Below are positions 3,835 through 62,498 of a DNA stretch of 64,000 nucleotides, one piece after another. The stretch spans positions 42,852-106,851 of the forward strand of contig JBNGIO010006237.1 in assembly GCA_049999805.1 (NCBI GenBank), read 5' to 3'. Below the pieces are notes generated by a model that made no database searches, was not told the origin of the DNA, and worked only from the letters and a program-made list of their open reading frames with translations. How positions within the stretch are numbered: position 1 is the first letter of the stretch; each line of letters opens with the position of its first letter. A program made the translations under genes and the position numbers. The DNA comes from Folioceros fuciformis. Taxonomy: Eukaryota.

Positions 3835-4400
3835 CTATTTTTTTATTATTGAAAAAGAGATGAAAAGTCCCATCTACTCCAAAGATTGGAGGAACAACTC
3901 GAATAGGACCAAAAGCCAAAAGGGTATTGGCCCCTTCGATTATCATTCTCAAAAACTACCTACTGCTCCCAAAATGTCAGGATGTAGAATATCGGAAGGC
4001 CTACCTACCATCGGTGCTGTAGAAGCCACTTGACCTGCGCTTGTTGCTGTTCTAAAAACCACTTTGGCCAATGCTCTTTGCAAAGCAATGGATACGTGTT
4101 GTGGAAAGAAGACCACCATAAACAAAAGAGGGAGAACACCATTTCTATGACTTTGGTAAACCTTAGAACACTCCTTGATAAACCTTGAAAAGTCTTTGCC
4201 CATAGCCCCGTGAGTCTCAAGAACAAGGCATGAAAGTATGCCTGTTTTACGGTGAAGAATACTTATGGACTTTGGCGCTTGCAAAACCCTCTGCCACCCA
4301 ACCAAGGGGCTGATGATGATGCTGATGCGCTCATAGATCAAATCCCTAGTGGGAACTGTAACAACCACATGAGTGATACGAACTTATTTCTCTCTAGTGA
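3835..4400 (-). mobile_element. 3' remnant of a non-LTR retrotransposon with restriction-like endonuclease (CRE/R2-type C-terminus)
   Basis: Across frameshifts: VVVTVPT...AKVHKY...HTFMP / LVLETHGAMGKDFSRFIKE...QHVSIALQRALAKVV, the layout of RLE domains. It is followed by an A-rich 3' tail near 3835-3850. Confidence 0.65.
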
Positions 4401-5319
4401 ACAACTTGTAGAAGACGGGATGGCTTTAACTAAGCTCACATTAAACCCTAAAAGATGTATAAAACCAGAAGATGCCATAGAAGATTCGAATACAACATAT
4501 ACTAAAAAAAAAAAAAAGCCCATATGGTATTCCATATAGAAGTTTCTTGGAGTCTAACCTTATTCTATTCTTTCATATAGCTACATAGATGTGTATGTAT
4601 GCATAAAGCAAGTACTGCAAGTAGTGTAAAGACGAGATTTCCAGGTCATAAATGTCCTGACCGTCAGCGGAATCTTTACATGCATGTACATATATGCATG
4701 GGGCTATGCAGGCATGTACATATGTACGTCTTCTTTGACTTGTCTTTGCGTGAATCGATCGGCTGTTACGTCCGCAGGTTTGGGAGATGGCTGATAGGAA
4801 ACTGCAGGAGACCTGATAGGCACGTGCTATTCCATGGTGGTGCTGCCTCCCTGCTGCTGCTGGTTGCGTATAACGTGGTTCCAGCAGCTTCCAAGGATCT
4901 TGTAGGGAGGCTGCTTCTGCAACAGCAATAGGCTAGTAGCAGTAGCATAGCAGCCTGCAACAGCGTACTATGCAGTCGGCTTTACGCTTCAGCCACCAAG
5001 GAGTCTCCATGTAGTCAAAAGTGGAAGAGAAAGGCAGAAGCTCCTTCAGTCAGTGTCAACCATCGCATCGTGTGCAGTTTACCACAGACACATTGCAAGA
5101 AAGGAGGCAAAGGTGGAGCTTTCAGTCTAGCTCAACATATCCAGTGTGCGCGATGATCACCCGCGCGAATATTCTAAAACTCAAGTTACCTATCTCATCC
5201 CTTCAAGTCCACGTTCCTCCCTCCAGCAGTTTCACACCCAATAACCGCCACCCCAGGAATGCACCGTTCACCTTCAGCGTCGATGCCGAAAACAAAGGAC
5301 TCAGGCGAGAATTCACACG

Positions 5320-9729: not shown

Positions 9730-11551
9730 CTATTCTACCGGGACCAGCTCCCGGGCCGGTACGCGGAGAGAGTCGACGTTGGTCCTGCCATCCAGCTTTC
9801 TACCGAAATAGAGCGCCACGTAGTCCGAGAAGAGCACGCTCCTGTACCCGGCGGGGCCTGCGCTATCCACGGGTGTCACCAGCGCGGTCAGCTCCGGCTG
9901 GAAGAAGGTGGCGAGCGACACGCGAGACCCCGCCTTGCACACCACAGCTCGGTGCTCCACGCTCTTGTACTTGCCATTGCTCGCCACCTGAAGATGAAGA
10001 GCAGCAGCAGCACCAGGCAGCAGCACCAGCCGCGGCGAGGTGGACGTGAGACAAGTGCTTCACCGTTCGTGTCCATGTGCCTGCAGCTGCAGCGGCAGAG
10101 CAGGATGAGGTGACAGAGGAACCTAACATCAACGGACAATCACCTACCTCCAACATGTCCCCGACGTTGAGCACCAGCGCCCCGGGCACAGGCTGCACCG
10201 CCAGCCACACGCCGTGGTGGCGAATCTCCAGCCCCGTCACGCCCGGGCTCTGCGCCAGCACAGTCAGGTACCCCCCGTCCNNNNNNNNNNNNNNNNNNNN
10301 NNNNNNNNNNNNNNNNNNNNNNNNNNNNNNNNNNNNNNNNNNNNNNNNNNNNNNNNNNNNNNNNNNNNNNNNNNNNNNNNTCAGGTACCCCCCGTCCGAG
10401 TGCGGGCTCAGCCCTAGCACCGACTCCGCGCGCGGGCACGCCGGGTAGAAGTTGATGCGCAAAGACGCCATGTGCTCTTGTCCGAACGCGTCCTGTAAGC
10501 AGGAGCCTGGTAGACCTAGGCTGAGCGACACCATTTCCAGCACCTGCCTCGCCAAATGCTGGATCCCGCGGCCATACTCCTCCATGACTTGCCTGACATG
10601 CACAAACACCGCACCACGAACAAGAGAAAAATTGTATCCCTATTCTCCTGCTCCTTCAATTCTATCCTCCTGCTCCTTCAATTCTATCCTCCTGCTCCTT
10701 CAATTCTATCCTCCTGCTCCTTCAATTCTATCCTCCAATCCGAGCTGCACTCACCTGTAGGACGCCGGCTTGCGAGGCCAGTGCATCTCCACCTTCTTCA
10801 TGGACTCCGGCATTAGGTTATGTCCCAACACATCCACCCAGTCCCGTGGAGCCCCCTCGTGCTCGAACACCCTGCCATACCCCTGGTACTCCCCGGGCCT
10901 GATGGCCACCTCCTGCTTCACGTCGAACGGCTGCAGGAAGAACTCCTCCGCCACCTTCAATGCCGCCTCCACACTCGACTCGGGCATGCCATGATTCACC
11001 ACCTGCTCCACCACGCCTCACCATTGAGACCGCATTCGGGGCCATGCCAACCCTACGTTAAACCACCACCACCACACCACCACTANNNNNNNNNNNNNNN
11101 NNNNNNNNNNNNNNNNNNNNNNNNNNNNNNNNNNNNNNNNNNNNNNNNNNNNNNNNNNNNNNNNNNNNNNNNNNNNNNNNNNNNNCGTTAAACCACCACC
11201 ACCACACCACCACTACACACGCACCTGGAAGAACCCCCATTCCTCGCACGCCCTGGCCACTTCGCTCCGCACCCTCTCCCTGTCCTCTCCCGATGTCCAG
11301 CCGCTCAGATCTATCACCGGCACGGATGCATCCTGCGACCCCGCCGTCCGTGCCTTCTCCAGCTTTGCTGTGCGAATGAACTGGCTCGGCACTTCCCCGA
11401 TCTCCGACATGGTCTGCACCATTTTCTCCTTCTGCGCCGCCGAGGCATGGAATTCGTGCGCTTCGAATCCGTATGTGGATTTGGAACTGCCATCGCCACC
11501 CGAGCTCCGAACTGCCGTCTGATTGAATCCCATCCTGGCAGTATCCTCCAT
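9730..11551 (-). CDS. 2-oxoglutarate/Fe(II)-dependent dioxygenase (DOXC class), 4 exons
   Basis: VPVIDLS, ACEEWGFFQVVNHG, LRINFYPACP, HSD iron motif, NVGDMLEV.SNGKYKSVEHRAV and RVS 2OG motif. Exons approx. 11225-11551, 10755-11003, 10147-10593, 9730-9988. Confidence 0.93.
10281..10380. other. 100-N assembly gap, probably spurious (further 100-N gaps at 11086-11185 and 37382-37481)
   Basis: Identical TCAGGTACCCCCCGTCC on both sides; collapsing it restores HSDGGYLTVL. Confidence 0.9.
10645..10738. repeat. 22-bp intronic minisatellite (TCCTGCTCCTTCAATTCTATCC x~4)
   Basis: Direct tandem copies in intron 2 of the dioxygenase. Confidence 0.9.
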
Positions 11552-12169
11552 TGCAAGGCGAGGCAGGTCTTCATCTTTATCAATCTCCAAATTTCTCTGC
11601 TGTCCCCGGTTCCTGCCAACTGTCTTCTGGTTTCTGCCAAGTGTCTCCCGTCTCATTGGCAAAAACCACTGCCCGATCCCAACACTCTGACAGCGTCTCG
11701 TGGGCCAGCGTCCGCACTGAAGAAAATCCCCGATCCTTTGTCCAATTTTGTTTTTTTCTGTCTACGTGCATTATTGTTTTTACGAGAAAACAATTCCAAT
11801 TATGTCAGCTGAAAGCTGGTTATGAGATTCACCGATGTTTTTGAAATGATCGGATTTTATATTTTAATCTTTTCTAAGGGCCATGAAAAAAAAAACAAAC
11901 ATGTTAGAGGTATTAAGTAATATGAACCGACCAACCATAATATGGAGAGAAAACGAATTTAAGGTTTCAAGTTTCGTTTTTAAGGTTTGAGGGTATGGAA
12001 TACCGGACAGGGACTATATAGTCATGTTTTTTTTTAATATGTATTTTATATATAAATATTCCATGGCATCTCAAGAATATTCCTCTACTATACCTTGCCA
12101 CATTATCCAACCCTATGTACACACTATATACCAAATTTTTTTTAATACCTCAAACCACTTTGTGTCCCG

Positions 12170-13222
12170 TATGGAATACTGATACGGACAGGAGTTCTTT
12201 CATAGATATTTAAGGGCGGCGGTATACGGTGCAAAGATATGGGACATAGGGTTTGTGCTCGTTTCGGTCATAGAGCAGAAAGTAGGTGTCCCGATTGGGG
12301 CACCTACTTTCTTCCCTTCATCACACTCACACTCACTTTTTTTTTGTAAGTTAGTTAGGACACCGATGACGAAGAGGGCACACCCATAACCGATGAGGTC
12401 GATTGCGGCAAGTCACTGGACGGCACGGAGGGGCGAGTTTTGGAGACAGTTTTTGACATCGCTAACGACTGCCCATCCTCCCCAGACCTTGGCAGTGGCA
12501 TCTCGCACTCTCCAGTGGCCTTCGACCCTGAGCTGTGGCCAGGCCCCGTGCAGCGCAGCACATCGCTCTTTCCACCGGTGTTGCTGCTGCACTCGGTGGC
12601 CCAGATGTTCCCACAAGGGAAGTGGCTAGGTCTGATGGGCGCACTCCCCCGGCGCCGCACCGCGATCCTCACACTCGACGTGTCCGCCATGCATGTAAGT
12701 AGCCAACGGAGGGAACAAGAAGAGGCGCTTCTCACAACGTGGTAGTCAACCTTCCTGGCCGTGGAGGAGTTGTGCAGCATCATGCTAGATGCAATGAAGG
12801 GGAAGAGCAAGGCAGGGACAAGCCACAGCGGTGGCCGAACCGCAGCAAACACTGCACTCTTCTTTGAGATCCTTGGTAGCTTGCTAGAACGTGCTGCAAT
12901 AACGAACGAAGGGGATGCGGACACCGGAGCTGATGCCCTCACCAAACTCCAATACACCAAGCTCAGAAACTTCACACACTTTATCTCATTGGACAGAGTG
13001 TGTTAAGTTCTATAATTCTTTAAAGACTGTGTCCCTTTCGGGACTGAAAGTGGTTAGAGATATTTAAAACAATTTGGTATATGGTATGTACGTAGGGTTG
13101 GATAATGTGGCAAGGTATAGTATAGGAATATTCTTGAGACGCCATAGAATATTCACGTATAAAATATGTATTCCAAAAAACAAACATGACTCTGTAGTCC
13201 TTGGCCGCATCGGTATTCCATA
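12170..13222 (+). mobile_element. Non-autonomous TIR DNA transposon copy E1, nested inside E2
   Basis: Termini TATGGAATAC / GTATTCCATA; TSD GTCCCG (12164-12169) / GTCCTG (13223-13228). Removing E1 restores the family right-end motif CCACTTT..GTCCCGAAAGGGACAC of E2. Confidence 0.85.
12359..13006 (+). pseudogene. Cargo of E1: ~215-codon reading frame with one internal stop, unknown product
   Basis: ORFs 12440..12745 and 12761..13006 are in the same frame, separated by a single TAG; GC-rich between AT-rich element ends. Confidence 0.5.
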
Positions 13223-13299
13223 GTCCTGAAAGGGACACAACAATTTTCTTAAGTTTCTGGCATAGCATCTTGGAATGGGGCGGCCTATTGCGAGCCGGA

Positions 13300-13640
13300 G
13301 CGATGGGGGCAGGGCGGAAGTGGTGGGCTTAGAGCTGGTGGCGTTGATCGACCATGTGGCGCGAGTGGGCATGCCAATTCTAGAGGCGGTGCTCGAGGAG
13401 GATGGGGGCAGCCTGCGCATGAGTCGGGAGGAGTTGGAGCTCATCATGGAGGGTGTGAAGGGCCAGGGAGAGTAGACGATGCGCATGCTTGCGGGTGGGA
13501 GCGTAGCCAACACGATCAGGGGCTGGCGGGGCTCGGGGTGCGCTGTGGGTTGGTGGGCGCCAGAGGGGACGATGCTTGCGGGGATATGTTCGCGGCCGCC
13601 ATGACCGTGTGTAAGGTCGGGCTGAAGAATCTAGGAGGGT
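13300..13640 (+). pseudogene. Captured fragment of a plant pfkB-family carbohydrate kinase gene
   Basis: VALIDHVARV...GGSLRMSREELELI...MLAGGSVANTIRG / LGVRCGLVGARGDDACGDMFAAAM, the pfkB signature 1 region. Stop at 13473-13475 and a 1-nt frameshift near 13520. Confidence 0.8.
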
Positions 13641-13823
13641 GCCACTCCCCTGCTCACTGCTCACTTGGCCTACACCTTTCGGTCATAGGGAACAAAGTAG
13701 GTGTCACGATCTTTGTGCCCTATGACTGAAAGGGGCACAAACTCTATGTCCCTTATCTTTGCACCGTATACCGCCGCCCTTAAATATCTATGAAAGAACC
13801 CTTGTTCGTATTGATATTCCATA

Positions 13824-13947
13824 TGAGGGTAGGGCTGTGATACGTTTTGTTTTTAGGGTTTGAGAGAAGGGCTGTGACACGTTTTGTTTTTAGGGTTTGA
13901 GAGAAGGGCTGCGACAAGTTTCATTTTTAGGGTTTGAGGGTAGGGCT
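13824..13947. repeat. 37-bp minisatellite containing TTTTAGGGTTT (telomere/telobox-like)
   Basis: GGGCTGTGACACGTTTTGTTTTTAGGGTTTGAGAGAA x~3; a related unit lies left of E2 at ~11960-11993. Confidence 0.8.
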
Positions 13948-14144
13948 TCCTAGATCGTTCCACAATGGGCCACAATATTGACTGTGTTAAAGTCTTGTAC
14001 TAAAGAAATAAGGCTTGTGACATAGAACTTTAGAAGACATGTAAAAACGGTAGATGCATAGGCATATTTTTGTATAATACATAATCGAGAAAAAGATAAT
14101 GGACGTGGAGGTTGTCTCTACCGTATTCCATAGATATGAATCTT

Positions 14145-14922
14145 TATGGAATACCGATGCAGACAGGGGTTCTTTCATAGAAATATTAGGGTGGCGGTAT
14201 GCAGTGCAAAGATGAAGGACATAACCTTTGTGCTCGCTTCGGCCATAGGGCACAAAGTAGGTGTCCCGATCAGGACACCACTTTGTGGGGCGAGCCCTGC
14301 AATAGTAGCTGGCCAGCCGTTCCACTTGCGGAGCCCGACTGCTGCATCCAGCTCGGGCCCGGCATGCTCATCGCCGCAGATCCGATTCCGCACTTGCCGC
14401 TCACCGTCCATCCCGCATCTAGCTTGGGTCCGGCATGCCCGGTGCCGCGGATTCGATTCCGCACCCGCCATTCACTGTCCATCCCATACCACATCCATGG
14501 GACGAAGGCGGACCACATCCATAGGACAAAGGCACACCCACCATCAGAATGCTGGGGTGCCGAGGCGAGCTGCGCTGCTCGGGATGATTCTTTAAAGACC
14601 GTGTCCCTTTCGAGGTGAGCTGCGCTGCTCGAGACGATTCTTTAAAGACCGTGTCCCTTTCGAGGTGAGCTGCGCTGCTCGGGCCGATTCTTTAAAGACC
14701 GTGTCCCTGTCGAGGTGAGCTGCGCTGCTCGGGACGATTCTTTAAAGACCGTGTCCCTGTCGAGGTGAGCTGTGCTACTTGGGACGATTATTTAGCCAAT
14801 TAGATGCCACAAAATATTGCGCTGCTCAGGACGATTATTTAGCCTAATAAAGGAATATTCCTTAGATGCCACAAAATATTCATATATAAAATACGTATTC
14901 CAAAAAAAAAACATATTCGATA
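14145..14922 (+). mobile_element. Non-autonomous TIR DNA transposon copy E3 of the same family
   Basis: Left terminus TATGGAATAC (14145), right terminus ATATTCGATA (14922); TSD AATCTT at 14139-14144 and 14923-14928. Left ~140 bp and right ~70 bp are homologous to the E1 ends. Confidence 0.8.
14561..14790. repeat. 50-bp tandem repeat (~4.5 copies) inside E3
   Basis: CGAGGTGAGCTGCGCTGCTCGGGACGATTCTTTAAAGACCGTGTCCCTTT recurs at 14561, 14611, 14661, 14711 and partially at 14761. Confidence 0.92.
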
Positions 14923-15606
14923 AATCTTTGCTTTATAGATAGGAATTTATTTTATCCAATTTTATTTTTTTTATGAAGTTAAGTATTAAGAAATATAACT
15001 CTCCTTTGTTGCTATCACAGCATATTCTATCCATTTTATCCAATTTTATTCCTTTTTAATAAAGTTAAGTATTAAGATATTTAGCTCTCCTCTGCCTCAA
15101 TCCAAGAATATTAGCCAAACATATGCCTATACAGCCAGCATGTACGAACCCATTCGGCATTTTGGAGAAATTTTCCTAATTTCAACATGATCTATTACAA
15201 ATTTACAGAAATATATTATTTCGCAAAATATCAAGGTTGTTAACAGAAGGTGAACCTGCACCCGCTTCTAACACCAAACTCTAGAACATCTGCAAGTTAT
15301 TTGATAAGTTCCGAAAGTTATCTTGATGAGTTCTTTTAATTCAAGCTCTGATAAATTTTATGTCCGTCTCTGAAGAGAGATTCCTATGAACCAAAATATC
15401 TAAGCACTTGTGGACGAGTTACGTGATGAATATCCCGACCAGGTTGGAAGCTAGTCAATACCTACAGTAGGTGTACAAAGTTGAGGGACCACACGGCCGA
15501 TGACTCAGAGAGCCCATTGCTTCTCCGATCATCTCTGCCTCTCCGGTGGCAAGTGGATACCGATTTCGAAGTAGCCCGCATCTCCTTCAGCATTCATCGT
15601 TGCGCT

Positions 15607-17971: not shown

Positions 17972-19449
17972 CCCGCCAACACAAATTGCCGCAGGTAGAG
18001 CACCCAGGCAGCGACAACCTGGACCTTGTCTCACCGACAAAGAGACAGCAACTCCATTATACATTTGTGGTGTAGCTCAATTCCACAACAGGATTCCAAA
18101 CTTGCTCATACAACACGCAATCGGGGGGAAGACAAAAGACATACATAAAACAGGCAGCAAGCACCACCACTAACAGAGCTGTAGCAACACCAAGGAAAGA
18201 CGACCGCTCAAGCTTTCGTCTATTTATCGTCCTCACCTTCATTCCATTATCCCGAGGTTGCATGTGACTCATGGCATCTGCATGACGCTTCACTTCATCG
18301 CGGCAGCATGATGGGGTAAGTAGAGAGAAGCCCAATGGTTTAGTATTTGCAAGAACCAGGGAGGCGAAGGAGCGAAGCGTGTTGGTGACGAGGGGGACCA
18401 TTCTTGAAATCACTGGGCAGATTAGCATCTCTACGGACGGGCCCATGAGGATGAAAGCGCATGCTAATCTTGGCATGTCCAAGCTCCGGCTCTGGACTTC
18501 CAGGGATGTTGTATGCCCATGGCTCTCATGAACTGTGTGGATTTTCCAACACCTGGCGTTCAAGCGCTGCTGGTGGGGACTTGGAAGAAGGTGCTCGCCA
18601 CTGCTGCACTTTGCCTCTCACCTACCTAGTCTAGGGAAGTGATGTCACCAGAATGATCCGCAGCTTTGGACCAAGAAACCGGGTGCATGCACCGGATTCT
18701 GCTGGTGGCGGGATTTGGGGATTCTTTTGCTCAAATTCGTCGTCGTCTCTCCACCACTTCTCTGATGCCAGCGATTTGAAGGGTGTGGGAGAGACCCTTG
18801 ATCGCTACTCGTTTCTTGAGATGCACTGAAGTTGACCCGCAAGAACAGCCAGGCAAGGCCAGTTCAGGAGATACTCCTTTTACCTTGCTCTGAGCAAATC
18901 GTTTTTCCCTCTAGATGTCTTGGGGGGGAAAAAAAAAAAATCTTCGAATAGCCCATCATGTGAGTATGCCACGCATTGCTTTCTCACATGCAGTGCACTG
19001 CAATTGGGTGTGATAGTCCAGAAATTTCAATACCACAAGTTGCTGCCTCTCATCTTAAGGGACACCAGCAATAATTCACACACACCCACAGTATATGGAT
19101 TTAGGGCCAAATAACATCGGCAAAGGCGATGGAAGCAACAAGGTGCCCCTTGCTGGACAAGGGCTGGACGGGCACGCTTACGACGTTCATCCATATTCGA
19201 AGTCTGGCAGTCTTGAATTTCCATCTGCTCGCAGTAGCTTTAGCTGTGCATCATACTACCAAGGGTGAGCAGATTTGCAATTTGAGTCAGCCAGGATTGC
19301 ACTGCATACGTGAAACTTTTGTTTAATCATCTTTGACAAGGAGTCTGCAAATTCGTGGTGTGCTTCAGCAGGGGTAGTCAGGGGTGCCGTAGATTTCGGT
19401 CTGTGCGAAGATCTGATGAGCTTTGCCACCACGTTGCCTTGCACCCGAC

Positions 19450-21114
19450 ATGGCTCCCAAGGCCAAACCGAAAGGCAAGGACAAGAATAAGAAGAAAGAC
19501 CCAATGGCACAAATGCAGGAAGAGATGGAAACAGTGAAGGCAGCCATGCTATCGAAGGAGCTCGAGATCTTCTGCCAAGTCGACAAGAACGAGAAATTGG
19601 AATTGAGATCCATGCACTTGTGCCAGACAGTTGAAACCATGAGTGAGGAAGCTAAGGCAGAGATAGACAAGCTGACGGAAGCCATATTCCATGTCACCCT
19701 GGAGAGAGATGTCCGAGAAAGCAAGCTTACGGCCTTAGACGCAGCCTTCAATGCGTTGAAGTTGGAAAACCAAACTGAGGTCTCGGCACTATTACAGCAG
19801 ATCCAGAAAATGAAAGATGGATATGAATTCAAAGTAGCTGACCTCCAGTTACAGCTGGACGACGCTCACGTTGAGCTACGAGACATGCACGATTTCTCCA
19901 TGAAGAGAGCTGCCATGGAAGCGGAGTTGGCCGGGCTCAGGGAACAGCTTGAGAAGGAACACAAACAACACCAAGAGGCGGTCAGTAATGCAGAGAGGAC
20001 AGCAGTTCAGGAGAAGGAGAGGCTCAAGAACGAGATGGCTCGGCGGATCCAAGAGACCATCGAGGAAATGGATAAGACTAATGACCAAAGACTGAGTGAG
20101 AAAACCAGGAAGGCAATGGCTCAGAACGACCATATGACCATGGAACTGGCATATCAGACAAGGCAAACAGAGCTGCTTCTGCACAAAAACGAGCTGCTGA
20201 CTAAAGAGAACGTCCAATTCCATCGAACTTGCCTCCTCCACAGGGAGATTGAGGAGGACCTGGGAAAGCGAATCCACATGTACCAAAAGACCATGCGTCT
20301 GCTGGTCTTCAAGCTACGGGCGATGCAGCATTCAGAAGAACAGCTCAAGCACGTGGTCTATGAGTCCGAACTGGAGAAGGAGAAGATGAGTCAGGACCTG
20401 GAAGCCCAGCACCGTGTGGCGGAAGGCCATGCTCAACCCGTCCGCAGGGACTCAAAGCTGAAAGAAATCATAGAGGAAAACTCTAAAAGAGCAGGCCACA
20501 TAGCAGAGGAAGCTGTGAAGTTCCTCTACGCTTGTCTCGAAGACAACGAGCTGGAAAGGCTCACCAGAGGTCACGACATTGGTGAGCAGAGCACCAGACC
20601 CAAGGCAGAAGATGTGACAGAGCTGCCCACAAACTTGAACAGCCTGGAGGATCTCACTACCTCACAAAGACGAGGAATTCTCATAGGCTTGTTGCGCACG
20701 GCCATCTCCTTGAGAGCTGTCACAATTCCTAGACTGTCCCAAGCTCCAGAAGGTGATCCAAGCTTGGCTGGAGAGAAGCCATTGAACCTCGGGGTCGAGC
20801 AAATACTGGCAATGGATGTGGACGCACTAGGATTGGACGACACCGTTCTCCTGGGCAGATCAAACAAACACCCGGTGTCAGTGGGAGTGCAAGTAGATGC
20901 TAAGGGCCTGCAACCTCGCCATGTCCGTATTCTCAAGTCCTACCATAGCCATGAAACCTCTTCAGAAGAAGGGACCCTGCATGCCCAGGAGCCCAAACCC
21001 ACCTTCGAATCAAGACGCGGTTCTCACCGGCCGCAGATTCATCACCATCACAGTTTGCATCACCACCACTCAGGCCATGTTCATCATCATGCCCATCACA
21101 ACCAACCGAGATAA
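19450..21114 (+). CDS. CFAP157: Cilia- and flagella-associated coiled-coil protein, CFAP157-like, single exon
   Basis: MAPKAKPKGKDK N-terminus, long coiled coil, EKERLKNEM...KTRKAMAQNDHMTMELAYQTRQTELLLHKN...EEDLGKRIHMYQKTMRLL, resembling recalled algal CFAP157. His-rich tail. Confidence 0.7.
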   Translation: MAPKAKPKGKDKNKKKDPMAQMQEEMETVKAAMLSKELEIFCQVDKNEKLELRSMHLCQTVETMSEEAKAEIDKLTEAIFHVTLERDVRESKLTALDAAFNALKLENQTEVSALLQQIQKMKDGYEFKVADLQLQLDDAHVELRDMHDFSMKRAAMEAELAGLREQLEKEHKQHQEAVSNAERTAVQEKERLKNEMARRIQETIEEMDKTNDQRLSEKTRKAMAQNDHMTMELAYQTRQTELLLHKNELLTKENVQFHRTCLLHREIEEDLGKRIHMYQKTMRLLVFKLRAMQHSEEQLKHVVYESELEKEKMSQDLEAQHRVAEGHAQPVRRDSKLKEIIEENSKRAGHIAEEAVKFLYACLEDNELERLTRGHDIGEQSTRPKAEDVTELPTNLNSLEDLTTSQRRGILIGLLRTAISLRAVTIPRLSQAPEGDPSLAGEKPLNLGVEQILAMDVDALGLDDTVLLGRSNKHPVSVGVQVDAKGLQPRHVRILKSYHSHETSSEEGTLHAQEPKPTFESRRGSHRPQIHHHHSLHHHHSGHVHHHAHHNQPR

Positions 21115-31394: not shown

Positions 31395-31855
31395 TATTTT
31401 TTATTATTGAAAAAAAGATGGAAAGTCTCGTCTACTCCAAAGGTTGGAAGAACAACCCAAAGTTTAGGATTAAGGGTTAAGTGTTAAGGATTAATTAAAT
31501 TAACTTCATCTATACTATTATTGTATTATATATAAGAATATATGGATAGGAGACCATATCATAAAAGGTACTTCAAATCACATATGGTTTTTTTGTCCCA
31601 AAAATATCAGGATAGGAATACAAAACAATCATGTAAGAATTCAAAACACGTAACATGTACAGTATATACATATCATAACTATTCATTAAAAGTAAAGATT
31701 TCATAACAGTCTACATTAAACATATCATATTAGTCATTGACGGGACTAGTACCCTTTTTGACCTTTGGCCCTTTTGCTTTGGTTGTTCCTTCTATCTTAT
31801 CTTTCGAGTAGTTGGGACTTTCCATCTCTTTTCTTAATAATAAAAAATAATATTT
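31395..31855. repeat. Two short, oppositely oriented copies of the RLE retroelement 3' end seen at 3840-3930
   Basis: TTATTATTGAAAAA.AGATG.AAAGTC.C.TCTACTCCAAAG.TTGGA.GAACAAC at ~31400-31460 (+) and as reverse complement at ~31741-31855. Confidence 0.75.
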
Positions 31856-33549: not shown

Positions 33550-35560
33550 CTACCATGTCTTCATGAATGTTCTAAAGCTCCTGCAAATTTCTATTCCTCC
33601 TAGCTAAGTGTTTCATTCATTTTAACTTTGGTTGGCTTGAAAGGCGGTGCTACAGCAGATCCACTTGTTGAAGCTCTTTAAGTTGCCAAACATTTCTTGT
33701 TCACATCCACCACCTCATATAAGTAGTCTTCATCATCCTCTTCCCCTTCAAGTTCATGTTTTTCTTCGACATTGTTCAAAAAATTCATTTGTTGTGGAAA
33801 AAGAGAATGTTGTCGAATTTGTTTCCATTGCGTTTATTTGAAAATTTGAGTTGAATGCCCTTCGAAAACTTATTTTTTCCCACCCATGTCTAATCGTTTC
33901 CTACATCATGCAGGAAATCATCAAATGTTTTAAACATGATGTTTAAAAAGTGTGTCCATGCATTGAATAGCTACTCACACACCTTGGGCTTCAATGTGTT
34001 TCAGTACCCCTTTTCCACCTTTCTTCAGCTGCTCTTAAATAGTGGTAGCTATCCACTTGATGAACTCACATTTAAAAGCATGCTTCAAAAGGATGTTGAG
34101 CAATAACATCAGCAGGTTATAACTTGATGCACCTTATAACTTGCTGGTGCATCTAGCAGGAACAAAGAGCACATAGATCATGGGGTTTGTATTTTTAAGC
34201 CAATCACATAGATCATGGGGTTAGTATTTTTAAGCCAATCAAGGAACTGCTTACTTTTTTGAACACGCCAACAATCTATAATCCAAATAATATTTTGTTT
34301 TGTGCCTAATTGTAATATTTCCAACTACCTTTCATAGTAGGGGAATATATTCTTCACAAAGGTCTTTGATGACTCTAGTGTAGACCAATGTGTGTTGGAA
34401 TATGTTGACTAAAAACTTGCCTTCTCACATAGCTTAGCACTGTCATGTGCTATCATGTGCTTTGGAAATTTGGCCTACTTCTTGTTCCTATGAAAATGAT
34501 CTATAGTAGTATCAAGCAACCTATTGTGAACGAAGACACCATTGCAGTCATTTGTCTTTTGTCCTGCACCCTAAGCACTTTCATTTATTTTGTCCCCTTA
34601 ACCTCCCAAGTGCGCTCTCCCTTTGTAGGAAGCAAGTGGATTCCTGTTTGATCAGTCTTGATCACAAGTTTCGGTGGAACACCATATGCTCGTGATAAGT
34701 AAGTTGTTATATATGCCATCAATTTTCCTTCATATTCCCATGTTTCTAGAAACTTGGAAGCTGCTATAGTAGATGCTAGATAGGACCATAAGAGTTCCTT
34801 CTTCATGAACTTTCTTGTCCAATCAATGCTAACTACAAATGTTCCCTTTCCAAGGAGTTCAGGTGCCCTTACTTGAATTATATCTCTCAACATGGGTTAG
34901 ATAAGAGGAGCTACAATTGCTTGTCCCTTGTCCCTTAAACTTCTCAAAAAATCACCAAGCTCTTTCTTCAAAACAGGTATGCCTTCTAAAGGACCCATGT
35001 TGATGGTTGATGATTGTTGATTGATGTTGTTGATTTTTTACTAACTGCAAGCTTGTATGCAGGCTTCAACTCCCATGTCTTCGAGTCAAAGCAAGTGTAT
35101 AAGGACCCACTCGTGAGCTTAGTGTATGAGTTGTCCATTCTTAGCTTTCCATAGGCAGTCTTTAGAAAACAGAAAGCATTAGAAAAGTTTCTATGCTTTC
35201 TAACACTTGCTTCTATAGAAGGCTATAAAGGATCTTGAAACCAATTAGTATAAGGACCTCGTTTCTGGTGTCGAACTCCCTTGCCATCCTCTTCTTCTTG
35301 TTTCATCCTCTTCATAGGTAAAAGAACTGCCTCACAAGTTGTCTTGCGCAGCCTTTCTATAGGTCGGTTGACAAGTGTTGACTTCAATACTTGCTCTTGT
35401 GTGGCAGCTACACTTGTAATAAACAAGTGATTGTCTCTCATAATTTTCACAATTTTAGCATCCCTCTCTTCTCTTTCAATGTTCTGAAACATGGATGTAA
35501 ATAAAGATTGCTTACTGGCTACCATGTTTGATTGCTTGCAAAACACCAACTCTAACAAAA
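33550..35560 (-). mobile_element. Degenerate DDE transposase (pogo/Tc1-mariner, DDE_1-like)
   Basis: RGPYTNWF; YGVPPKLVIKTDQTGIHLLPTKGERTWEVKG; IIWIIDCWRVQ; VPARCTSKL...QPADV. Multiple disruptions and a ~37-bp internal duplication at ~34169-34242. Confidence 0.8.
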
Positions 35561-36589
35561 AAAGAAAGGCTCCAAGTAGGTAGTTCTTGTTTAAGAAACT
35601 AAAGTTAATTCATAAACCTAGCCCTAATCTTGGGAACTAGGTCTTGTTTACAGAAAAACAAAAGTTTGTTTGAGAAACTAGAAAATGTTTACCAAACTAG
35701 GGCTTATGTCAAACTAGAGCTATACCTACATGTCTTACATAATATTGAATGTTGAAATTTAATAAAATTATTTAAAATAAATATTAAAATTCTAAAAATA
35801 TGGATTCTGATGTTCAATCTCTAAGCTTTTTAAAAAATAATTATGTCGACATTACCCCGTTGAACCACCTCGTAGGGTATAGTATTCATAATTACATGGT
35901 TATTAGATATGATATTCACAAGCGATTGGTATGTATGTTGAGCAGTACCAATTCTATAATATTAAATCAAAAGTACTTCATTATCGTACTTGAAACTTTA
36001 TCTGATCACAATTACTTCATTATTGTGCTTCAAAACATCATCTAAATACTCATGTTTAAACATATTGAAGAATCAACTTATAAATAAATCAAATATGATT
36101 GTTGAATCTAACATAATAAATATAGTTGGCATAGAATGAACTTTGAATAGTATCAATTCCATTCCATGACACTAAAACAAAAACACTTTATTGCAATACT
36201 TCAAAAATGATGTATAAATTTCCATTTAAATGTATTGAAGGATCATATTCATAAACCTATCACATATGGTTGCTGAATATGACTTATTATAGGTTGCTAA
36301 CAAAAACTAATGGTACCAATTTTACGACATTGAATCAAAAGTACTTCTTCATTATACTTCAAAAGATTATTGTACTTCAAAGTATGGTATGATCATTCAA
36401 ATGCATTGAAGGATCACATTCAAAAACATATCATATATGGTTGTTGAATATGACCTATTAACTAATAACTAATATTACATATAATTTACATAACTTACTA
36501 ACTTACATATAACTAATATTAACACATAAATAATTAGTTCATTAGAGTTGATTTAATATACGATAAATTTGTGCTTGTAGATAAAGTAA

Positions 36590-37030
36590 TATCTTATACT
36601 TAACTCATTGGAGTTTGGTAGTTAAGTAATTCTCTAATCCTGTCACTATAGGAATGCCATCTATACTAGTCATCATTGATCACTCTTTGCTCATTATAGT
36701 TTGGTGGCTAAGCAATCGTCTAATCTCATCACCATACGATTGTCATCTATACTAGTTATACCTCATCACCCCTAGCTCTTTGCAATTTGGTGCTTAAGCA
36801 ATCCCTTACACCATACGATTGTCATCTATAATAGTTATACCTCATCACCCCTAGCTCATTGCAATTTGGTGCTTAAGCAATCCCTTACTCTCATTGCTTA
36901 GATAATAGGATATCTGTCATCTCTCATTACTCTTAGCTCATTGCAATTTGGTGCTTAAGCAATCCCTTACTCTCATTGCTTGGAGAATAGGATATATGTC
37001 ATCTCTCATTATTCTTAGCTCTAGTAGGAA
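36590..37030. repeat. ~80-bp degenerate tandem repeat (TAGCTCATTGCAATTTGGTGCTTAAGCAATCCCTTAC core)
   Basis: Near-identical units from ~36730 and ~36810; related units recur at ~38180-38350. Confidence 0.8.
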
Positions 37031-37069
37031 ATACATTGAGTGGGAAATACTTTATGGCTATACTTCAAA

Positions 37070-37662
37070 GAACCACATGTATTCAAAAGCGCTTCATGTA
37101 CTTCAAAGGAACATTTTTTGCACATGATTGTAATTCAAAGGATCACATAAAAGTGTTGAAGCATCACATTCAAAAGCACATCATAATTGTACTTGGAAGG
37201 ATCACATAAAAGTGTTGAAGCATCACATTCAAAAGCACATCATAATTGTACTTGGAAGGATCACATGAAAGTGTTGAAGCATCATAATCAAAAGCACTTC
37301 GTGATTGTACTTCGAAGGATCATATGCAAGTGTTGAAGCATCATAATCAAAAGCACGATTGTACTTCTTCGTGTACTTCGANNNNNNNNNNNNNNNNNNN
37401 NNNNNNNNNNNNNNNNNNNNNNNNNNNNNNNNNNNNNNNNNNNNNNNNNNNNNNNNNNNNNNNNNNNNNNNNNNNNNNNNNAAGCATCATAATCAAAAGC
37501 ACGATTGTACTTCTTCGTGTACTTCGAAGAATCATATGAAAGTGTAAAAGTATCACAATCAAAAGGACTTAATGATTGTACTTCAAAGAACTATATTAAA
37601 GTGTTAAATTATTACAATCAAAAGCAATTCATGAATGTACTTCGAAGGATCGCATGAAAGTT
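37070..37662. repeat. 59-bp satellite-like tandem array (AAAGTGTTGAAGCATCA.A.TCAAAAGCAC...TTGTACTTCGAAGGATCACAT), spans an N gap
   Basis: Exact 59-nt period at 37141/37200; degenerate relatives at ~35960-36450 and ~31550-32030. Confidence 0.85.
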
Positions 37663-39066
37663 TGAAAACTAGACAAGAACTATCATGTCAAGCAATGCAT
37701 AAGAGGGTGACCTCGCAAAGTCCTCATCCCACTATACGAAGCTAGAATAGTCGTCATAATGGCTCAACAATGCAACGTAATAAGACAAACGATTTGCAAA
37801 TTATCATATTTTGAACTTCATGGTTTTGCACAACGTTTCTTTAGGTGATTTTTCCACAAGGCCAAAAAAAATGTTTTACATTGGAGACACCTTTAGGAAA
37901 TTATTTCTCACTCAACATTCTTCAGCTACATTAGAACCCTTTGCAAAATATGATGTTATATGTGGAACTTATCTACACAAACTAAGAAGAACAATTGACT
38001 TAAGCCCTATAGGCCCAAAAATCTAGACAAAATATGCACAAACCTTCTTATTATATGCTTTGTTTCTATGCAATGAATCATGTTCAAAGTAGACAAGCTT
38101 TAAGGTGTGACATATTTGTGCCTATTGATTAAGCGACATCTTATTCTATGTCCTCCTTTGATGCGTGACACATAAATACTTAGCTCATTGGAGTTTGATG
38201 GTTAAGTAATCCTCTTATCTCATCGCTATAGATACGTCATCTATACCAGTCATCCCTGTCACTCCTAGCTAGTTAAAGATCGGCAGTTAAATAATCCTTT
38301 GGTCTCATTGTTGTTATGATAGGATACCTTTCTTCCCTCACTACTCCTAGATCTTGGTGGCCTTTGTAATCTAGAGTTATTCAAGGTCCCTCACTATAGG
38401 ATTTCTTTGTCTCACCTAGAAACAAGTCCCTATTGTTCCGAAACCTTATGGATCGTTGGTTAATGATCTTTCATTGACTAACCCTCGAGAGGGACTTTTT
38501 TCTGTAAAGGTTTGAACGGTATGAAGCCCTCCAAAAGATTATCTCAATTGTCTAGCTTATAAAGAGAGCAATTTATGTAAGAATAAGAAGCTCTACTTTA
38601 TGTATTGTCCTTTCTGAAAAAAATATGTTGTGAGGTTAGGCTAAACTCTAGGGCAGCAATGGATCACTCGTATTGTATTTTGTGGTTTTAGGAATTACTC
38701 TATTTACTAACTCAAATTTCTATCCATAATAATTGTAATCCAATATTAAGACTTCATAAAATATTATAGTCATGACTATTTACACTTGTCCCTAATGGAA
38801 ATATTTCATTGAAAGAATTGTGTACATAAACAAGAAAGTGTCATCCTCAACAAATGCGGACGGTGTTCACAGAATGTGGGAGTGCAACGGCTGGCTAATT
38901 TTGTCGTGGGATCCGTCTGATATTTCTTATATGACACCATAAAAGAGAGCCAGCCGTTTGCCATTCTGTCTTCCCGCTCCCTCGTTATTGTCGCCAAGTG
39001 AAATCTGAGAAGCACCGATTTGGCAGCGACAATAGCGCGTACGCACATTGCTCTTGAGAGATCGCT

Positions 39067-62424: not shown

Positions 62425-62498
62425 GACCGCATAGCGCAGTGGATTAGCGCGTTGGACTTCGGATCCAAAGGTCGTGGGTTCGAATCCCATTGTGGTCG
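62425..62498 (+). tRNA. trnR-UCG: tRNA-Arg (anticodon TCG)
   Basis: Acceptor stem GACCGCA/TGTGGTC, anticodon stem TTGGA/TCCAA with loop CTTCGGA, T-loop GGTTCGAATCC; upstream AT-rich box and CAA; TTTT at ~62543. Confidence 0.95.

Follow-up and report, generated by a model that had tools for sequence, protein, structure and literature searches.

Positions 11988-14928 of the Folioceros fuciformis stretch analysed here (64 kb of contig JBNGIO010006237.1, hereafter the window) hold three related insertions, referred to below as elements A, B and C. The best explanation is that they belong to one multi-copy family of non-autonomous cut-and-paste transposons in a seed-free land plant, most likely of the IS3EU/GingerRoot superfamily, and we regard this explanation as probable. 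The interior of A is, judged by its translation, a pseudogene fragment that stems from the 5' end of a pfkB kinase gene of the host. DNA transposons that capture pieces of genes reshuffle coding sequence, by a mechanism that is still unclear. The three elements are a documented example of this known phenomenon and not a new class. What looks new is small: the shortness of the elements, their unlike arms and the long palindrome that closes the left arm.

An earlier note, made from the letters of this stretch, had proposed three copies here, with A in reverse orientation. A reading of the sequence from 11700 to 15200 together with a repeat search confirmed all three as non-autonomous elements with terminal inverted repeats (TIRs), belonging to one family, at the positions given in Table 1.

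Duplications, ends and arms of the three elements

Target site duplications (TSDs) were examined by comparing the abutting flanks at k=3 to 10. All three elements show a duplication at k=6, and no other length from 3 to 10 gives a match. The duplication is complete in A and C and matches at five of six positions in B, so that a 6-bp duplication of its own for each copy, as suggested earlier, is borne out. For random 6-mer pairs of the window, the chance of a match at all six positions is 0.00036 and that of a match at five or more is 0.0049. The three TSDs are jointly far beyond chance.

Two of the insertions, A and B, also have a paralogous uninterrupted site within the window. The target of A is one unit of a 37-bp tandem repeat: the split unit (11968-11998) and an intact one (13915-13945), in which TGAGGG occurs once, show 90% identity. 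The target of B is the right arm of A, and when B and one copy of its TSD are taken out, this arm becomes colinear with B's own right arm. The 37-bp repeat comprises 3.4 units at 13824-13947, with TTTAGGG-like, plant telomere-type motifs; a part-unit lies on the other side of A (11968-11993) because A inserted within one unit.

The termini are TATGGAATAT...GTATTCCATA in A, read in A's own orientation, TATGGAATAC...GTATTCCATA in B and TATGGAATAC...ATATTCGATA in C. A and B therefore have TATGG...CCATA ends, while C starts with TATGG and ends with CGATA. The terminal 10-mer, with at most one mismatch, occurs nine times in the window where 2.9 occurrences are expected, and nine was reached in none of 100 shuffles. 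In literature text, this 10-mer occurs in 29 papers; the ten among them that were listed looked unrelated by title, and one abstract was a primer table.

The left arms measure about 140 nt. Alignments of 113-148 nt between them show 81-83% identity (E 1e-25 to 4e-38), with A and B at 81% over 148 nt. The right arm is about 185-210 bp long; between A and B (13039-13222 in the latter) it is 83.7% identical over 184 nt (E 1.5e-52), and nhmmer finds it in A with E 2.7e-42. Over all arms, identity among copies is 81-88%. Within one element, left and right arm have in common only an imperfect TIR of about 21-24 nt, in which 10 bp are perfect and the whole 21-24 bp match at 86-88%; this is below the IS3EU and GingerRoot TIR lengths given in the published descriptions compared. 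In C, the right arm is reduced to the outer 70 nt in common with A and B (84%), and the alignment corrects the earlier note in that about 27 nt are missing from this end just inside the terminal ATTCGATA.

A strong palindrome closes the left arm in all three copies (-15.9 to -17.2 kcal/mol, z-scores of -5.6 to -7.3, none of 200 shuffles as stable). Its pivot and the length of its second arm vary between copies, and the cargo starts after it. At their inner edge, the right arms have a short GTCCC..GGGAC motif in common, which is not significant as a fold (z -1.5 in B, +0.9 in C) and is counted as a motif only. B is inserted in the loop of this motif in A; we draw no conclusion on targeting because this is a single case. 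Rfam and tRNA scans gave no match inside the elements.

Two right-arm remnants represent further members of the family. One is truncated (4400-4536) and aligns to the family; a left arm was looked for upstream of it and none was found, and its nhmmer score is circular because the piece was part of the model. The other, a degenerate solo arm with a weak match, sits 12 bp upstream of C.

Further copies were sought in contigs from two runs (X1 and X2) of one sample, placed on the window at 80% likeness. This sample is probably the source sample and hence gives no independent support. The runs gave 246 (X1) and 289 (X2) placed pieces, of which 185 and 223, respectively, are less than 95% alike and therefore come from paralogous copies. 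Summed contig depth, which indicates repetition, reaches 50-257 across the arms, compared with 3-9 in the unique flanking sequence. Parts of the region, for example 13946-14079, have no contigs in X1 and X2. At each of the termini 12170, 13222, 13823 and 14145, 5-12 contigs diverge exactly at the boundary, so that the likeness between genomic copies stops where the elements were proposed to end. The mutual agreement of these contigs beyond the boundary is as low as 0.42-0.51, and thus their flanks are different. At 12310 and 14279, where the left arm ends on its inner side, 5-8 contigs part from the window with an agreement of 0.56-0.64, from which it follows that more interiors exist than those of A, B and C.

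A search of metagenome contigs of the Joint Genome Institute, with two exact-pattern scans from conserved left-arm blocks, gave 0 matches each; as the copies are about 15% diverged, such scans are insensitive and silent on distribution. In contigs of a further run (X3), compared over 11400-15400 of the window, most differences are of two kinds, C>T at 132 places and G>A at 145, as bisulfite-converted reads would give, and over the pfkB cargo of A all of them have T at the listed C positions; we draw no conclusion on methylation from these contigs.

Interiors and the captured kinase fragment

The arms have a GC content of 0.22-0.48 and the interiors of 0.56-0.63. No mutual similarity was found among the interiors of A, B and C, and the idea that every copy has a different GC-rich interior is therefore correct. 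No transposase was found inside the three elements, where the interior open reading frames (ORFs) are without a Pfam family.

The cargo of A was examined with the frame 13266-13604, its one stop replaced by X, against 741 candidate proteins. The search returned 68 proteins at E<=0.001, all 68 with the pfkB domain PF00294, and the best matches are liverwort proteins (52% identity, E 3.3e-12). With tblastn, a Marchantia paleacea protein aligns in two parts, its residues 1-90 to 13275-13532 and 91-125 to 13529-13633 (E 4.5e-20). The match begins at the first methionine of this protein and runs without an intron-like gap. It makes up about 80% of the sequence between A's arms, with the sense strand opposite to A's orientation. 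The reading frame is broken by an in-frame TAG at 13473-13475 and a frameshift near 13529-13532. No parental pfkB gene lies within the window. Contigs that are 85-90% alike cover the cargo, and in one contig of another sample, which has the same species label, right-arm sequence of the family is joined directly to 13228-13356, without B. Read from a loose end of 25 letters, this contig suggests further A-type copies that spread after the capture.

With this cargo and the arms in hand, the reading that the elements are no transposons at all, and that we see solo long terminal repeats (LTRs) or chance repeats, is hardly credible. LTR elements too can have TA..TA or TG..CA ends and TSDs of 4-6 bp, as noted in the GingerRoot description (PMC6839031). 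However, TIRs are present here, the interiors are unrelated and one of them is a gene fragment, the arm similarities have E-values from 1e-25 to 1e-52, and the joint probability of the three TSDs is about 6e-10. The arm similarity, the pfkB tblastn match and the TSD data already contradict it.

In B, a frame with a single TAG has a coding-like GC of 0.59, 0.47 and 0.66 at codon positions 1, 2 and 3. For its 86-residue ORF, none of 253 word-sharing candidate proteins scored. In the ESM Atlas the top value for this ORF was 0.88, with low recognition and helical-repeat families (Dopey, HEATR5A, BIG2_C), which is a lead only, while a 128-residue ORF of B gave nothing above 0.78. A HMMER scan of 1.84 billion representative proteins with the latter returned two matches (E 2e-7 and 3.5e-5). 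Both are bacterial cadherin- or adhesin-type repeat proteins in which one 30-residue stretch is matched repeatedly, and they were judged spurious. The 273-bp interior of C is built of two 71-bp and two 24-bp repeats and has no Pfam match, and its cargo/right-arm junction is amplified as a 50-bp tandem repeat with 4.7 copies and 94% matches. In a Pfam search with ten interior or neighbouring ORFs, no family reached the cut-off; sub-threshold matches to DUF5612 (E 0.076) and UBM (E 0.1) were taken as chance.

The family had earlier been described as gene-capturing and cargo-swapping. One family with different interiors is found, and host sequence is found in A, as the pfkB fragment; for B and C no credible homologue turned up, and the capture of a host gene is therefore seen in A only, and not in every copy. 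Within the same family and superfamily, it can be speculated that cargo swapping is not general, that the interior of B and perhaps that of C are deletion derivatives of an autonomous element, and that A is a single capture. We take this as a realistic alternative, although clearly the less likely one. It agrees with the missing protein match of B and with the tandem repeats that make up the interior of C. Summed depth over the interiors, from diverged contigs, is 37-125 in B, which comes near the values of the arms and clearly exceeds the 25-58 of A's cargo and the 12-16 of C. One contig joins the first ~100 nt of B's interior to the right arm and skips 696 nt, which looks like a further deletion derivative. 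However, the three interiors are dissimilar, the contigs that part at 12310 and 14279 show that several different interiors exist, and a conserved transposon protein in the B ORF should have relatives among the 1.84 billion proteins, where only the two spurious matches were found.

Superfamily and likeness to known gene-carrying elements

In complete IS3EU families the termini are always TA..TA and the TSDs usually 6 bp; for GingerRoot, 6-bp TSDs are described along with termini that are mostly TA..TA, and IS3EU and this plant family form one lineage with 99% bootstrap (PMC10045372). The IS3EU elements described from rust fungi have 6-bp TSDs, TAYGG..CCRTA ends and TIRs above 30 bp (PMC12730594). 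For the IS3EU-related Styx/REP9 of Zymoseptoria, reports give TIRs of 36-43 bp and observed transposition, and 33 of 36 copies have a 6-bp TSD (PMC10853768, PMC8232023). Both end features of IS3EU/GingerRoot are found here, a 6-bp TSD in all three elements and TA..TA termini, with TATGG...CCATA in A and B. The likeness to IS3EU extends to the specific TAYGG..CCRTA form of the rust-fungus families. TIRs are short in IS3EU, Styx/REP9 included, and shorter still here. The IS3EU elements of fungi and animals differ in being autonomous and carrying several genes, whereas only non-autonomous copies are seen here, and no autonomous copy was found within the window. On these grounds we consider it likely that the family belongs to the IS3EU/GingerRoot superfamily, and the earlier guess of an IS3EU-like superfamily is well supported by the 6-bp TSD and the TAYGG..CCRTA-type ends.

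Several points weigh against the reading of A, B and C as a multi-copy, gene-capturing IS3EU/GingerRoot family. As no transposase was seen, the assignment to the superfamily draws on the 6-bp TSD and a 5-nt terminal motif only, in which YGG would follow the TA by chance in about 1 in 32 cases. The multi-copy state is read from contig depth, which shows repetition but does not equal copy number. A host-gene origin of the interior is seen in one of the three copies, B and C matching no known protein or family, and the interior of B could be the family's own internal sequence, because its contig depth nearly equals that of the arms. How capture works and what the palindrome does, as proposed below, are purely what we infer. 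Finally, A, B and C differ in build from the GingerRoot elements of Selaginella lepidophylla. They are 0.77-1.05 kb long, with TIRs of about 25 bp, two unlike arms and a palindrome at the cargo edge, whereas the latter measure 3.9-12.9 kb, have TIRs of 100-150 bp and lie mostly in gene-poor regions (PMC6839031). The elements described here lie between genes.

Other superfamilies were weighed on the same features. The Pack-MULE and Pack-CACTA elements of seed plants resemble the family, at least as far as A is concerned, in being non-autonomous TIR elements with a host-gene interior and, probably, continued transposition. Pack-MULEs have TSDs of about 9 bp, and Pack-CACTA elements have TSDs of about 3 bp with CACTA ends, unlike the 6-bp TSDs and TATGG ends of A, B and C. 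For Mutator-like elements in general, TSDs of about 8-11 bp and long TIRs are typical. A Mutator-like (Pack-MULE) identity was rejected, as the flanks do not match at k=8 to 10 and the TIR is only about 25 bp. A CACTA identity was rejected on TSD length and end features.

A lineage of the hAT superfamily with 6-bp instead of 8-bp TSDs also comes into question. Elements of the hAT superfamily are abundant in plants, and Ds-like hAT elements typically combine short TIRs with subterminal arms that are long and unlike each other, as in the present family. The hAT terminal consensus is YARNG, which fits TATGG at four of five positions. Families of hAT with 5-, 6- and 7-bp TSDs exist, so that a 6-bp TSD as such is known for hAT; however, the hAT5 and hAT6 groups described belong to an animal hAT lineage, and it is IS3EU for which the same source reports 6-bp TSDs together with TAYGG..CCRTA ends (PMC12730594). 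An 8-bp duplication is present in none of the three copies. A hAT origin is in our view very unlikely.

Lastly, the transposase that moves the family could come from a superfamily so far unreported in plants, the IS3EU-like ends being coincidental. The lack of a visible transposase and the arm architecture, which is unlike that in the published account of GingerRoot (PMC6839031), would agree with this, but both diagnostic end features fit IS3EU/GingerRoot, a lineage reported from seed-free plants. We hold such a coincidence to be quite unlikely.

GingerRoot was reported in the lycophyte S. lepidophylla and in mosses by Cerbin, Wai, VanBuren and Jiang (2019, PMC6839031), with matches to its DDE motif in SRA data of 18 Bryopsida and three Lycopodiopsida species. 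In S. lepidophylla, the termini are TA..TA in 72 of 77 intact elements, and the TSD is 6 bp long in most cases. Gene fragments, from ten genes and with introns, are carried by 22 of the 77, and the DDE motif is kept in only six of these 22 and absent from the other 16. The captured pieces are partial genes that have diverged from their parents, and the capture mechanism is called unclear by the authors (all PMC6839031). It has therefore already been published that this superfamily shuffles genes in a seed-free plant, and the earlier view of an undescribed route of gene-fragment shuffling in such a plant does not hold. In common with S. lepidophylla GingerRoot, the present family has a seed-free host, a 6-bp TSD, TA..TA ends and a host gene fragment without the DDE region. 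The comparison is one with the published description and not with the end sequences, and similar short forms may have been excluded from the GingerRoot element lists or may already be among them. If membership in IS3EU/GingerRoot is confirmed, the gene-carrying members would extend to small elements of the size of miniature inverted-repeat transposable elements (MITEs), and may reach a host other than Selaginella.

We suggest the following mechanism for the family. The transposase of an autonomous IS3EU/GingerRoot element elsewhere in the genome would bind the TIRs and arms, and the same enzyme, presumably an integrase-like DDE transposase, would excise the element and integrate it with 6-bp staggered cuts. 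During repair of the excision gap, the interior could be replaced by foreign DNA through template switching, with the palindrome that closes the left arm on its inner side as a likely point of stalling or switching. Captured fragments would then spread through the genome by further transposition. The layout of arm, palindrome and cargo gives well-defined junctions that can be compared across many copies, which is of use for template-switch models.

A more far-reaching idea is a dedicated short "Pack-GingerRoot" lineage, in which the palindrome and the right-arm hairpin motif would stall repair synthesis and act as repeated template-switch sites for the exchange of interiors. We think this unlikely. 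If true, it would give the first sequence-level handle on the acquisition of host genes by integrase-type DNA transposons, and the self-insertion of B in A's hairpin loop would be a sign that targeting follows DNA structure.

Feature positions and surroundings in the window

Table 1. Coordinates of the elements, their parts and related features (window positions; k, length of the flanks compared)
Feature	Position	Strand	Details
Element A	11994-13823	reverse	split by nested B
A right arm, outer 176 nt	11994-12169	-	matches B right arm
A right arm, inner remainder	13229-13262	-	boundary to cargo uncertain; continues the short-hairpin stretch common to the B and C right arms
A cargo	13275-13633	+	first 125 codons of a predicted pfkB-family carbohydrate kinase gene, from the start codon
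A left arm with palindrome	13675-13823	-	matches B left arm
A palindrome	13675-13733	-	-17.2 kcal/mol; z -7.3; 0/200 shuffles
A TSD	11988-11993 and 13824-13829		TGAGGG/TGAGGG; 6/6 at k=6, 3/8 at k=8
Element B	12170-13222	+	1053 bp; nested in A
B left arm	~12170-12317		
B palindrome	12272-12317	+	16-bp stem; -15.9 kcal/mol; z -6.2; 0/200 shuffles
B interior	~12318-13010		
B interior frame	12359-13003	+	215 codons, single TAG
B right arm	~13011-13222		
B TSD	12164-12169 (inside A right arm) and 13223-13228		GTCCCG/GTCCTG; 5/6 at k=6, 2/8 at k=8
Element C	14145-14922	+	778 bp
C left arm	14145-14287		
C palindrome	~14250-14287	+	z -5.6
C interior	14288-14560		
C 50-bp repeat	14561-14794		
C outer right arm	14845-14922		
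C TSD	14139-14144 and 14923-14928		AATCTT/AATCTT; 6/6 at k=6, 2/8 at k=8
Truncated right arm, further family member	4400-4536	+	ends GTATTCCATA at 4527-4536 (exact 10-mer); 77.8% over 45 nt, E 7e-4
Degenerate solo right arm, further family member	14035-14132	+	ends GTATTCCATA at 14123-14132 (exact 10-mer); weak nhmmer match, E 0.007

Cilia- and flagella-associated proteins of Marchantia (35%), Ceratopteris (39%), Calypogeia and Diphasiastrum are matched by a long single-exon ORF (19450-21111, also delimited as 19420-21111), and its predicted product points to a host with motile sperm. Together with the pfkB matches, these matches identify the host as a seed-free land plant. The best protein matches (liverworts, fern, lycophyte) are only 35-52% identical, and no Selaginella protein is among the matches listed. 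A fragment of a 2OG-Fe(II) oxygenase gene lies at 9866-10279, about 1.3-2 kb upstream of the element cluster, and the window starts with a fragment of a Copia-type retrotransposon (1-1003) with reverse transcriptase at 1-468 (RVT_2, E 5e-13).

The window contains three assembly gaps of 100 N each (10281-10380, 11086-11185 and 37382-37481). The second, about 800 bp upstream of the elements, has identical 30-mers on either side (11056-11085 and 11186-11215) and looks like a scaffolding artefact. Directly downstream of C, an AT-rich 86-bp tandem repeat is present in 1.9 copies (14949-15112). Another short repeat family occupies 3839-3941, 31397-31456 and 31736-31847, with 60 nt at 90% in direct and 112 nt at 75% in inverted orientation; the latter two pieces could be the ends of a MITE-like element of about 450 bp (31397-31847). 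A tRNA-Arg(TCG) gene is found at 62425-62498 by both Rfam and ARAGORN, and the block 34001-38000 is AT-rich, with a GC content of 0.30-0.36 against a window average of about 0.49.

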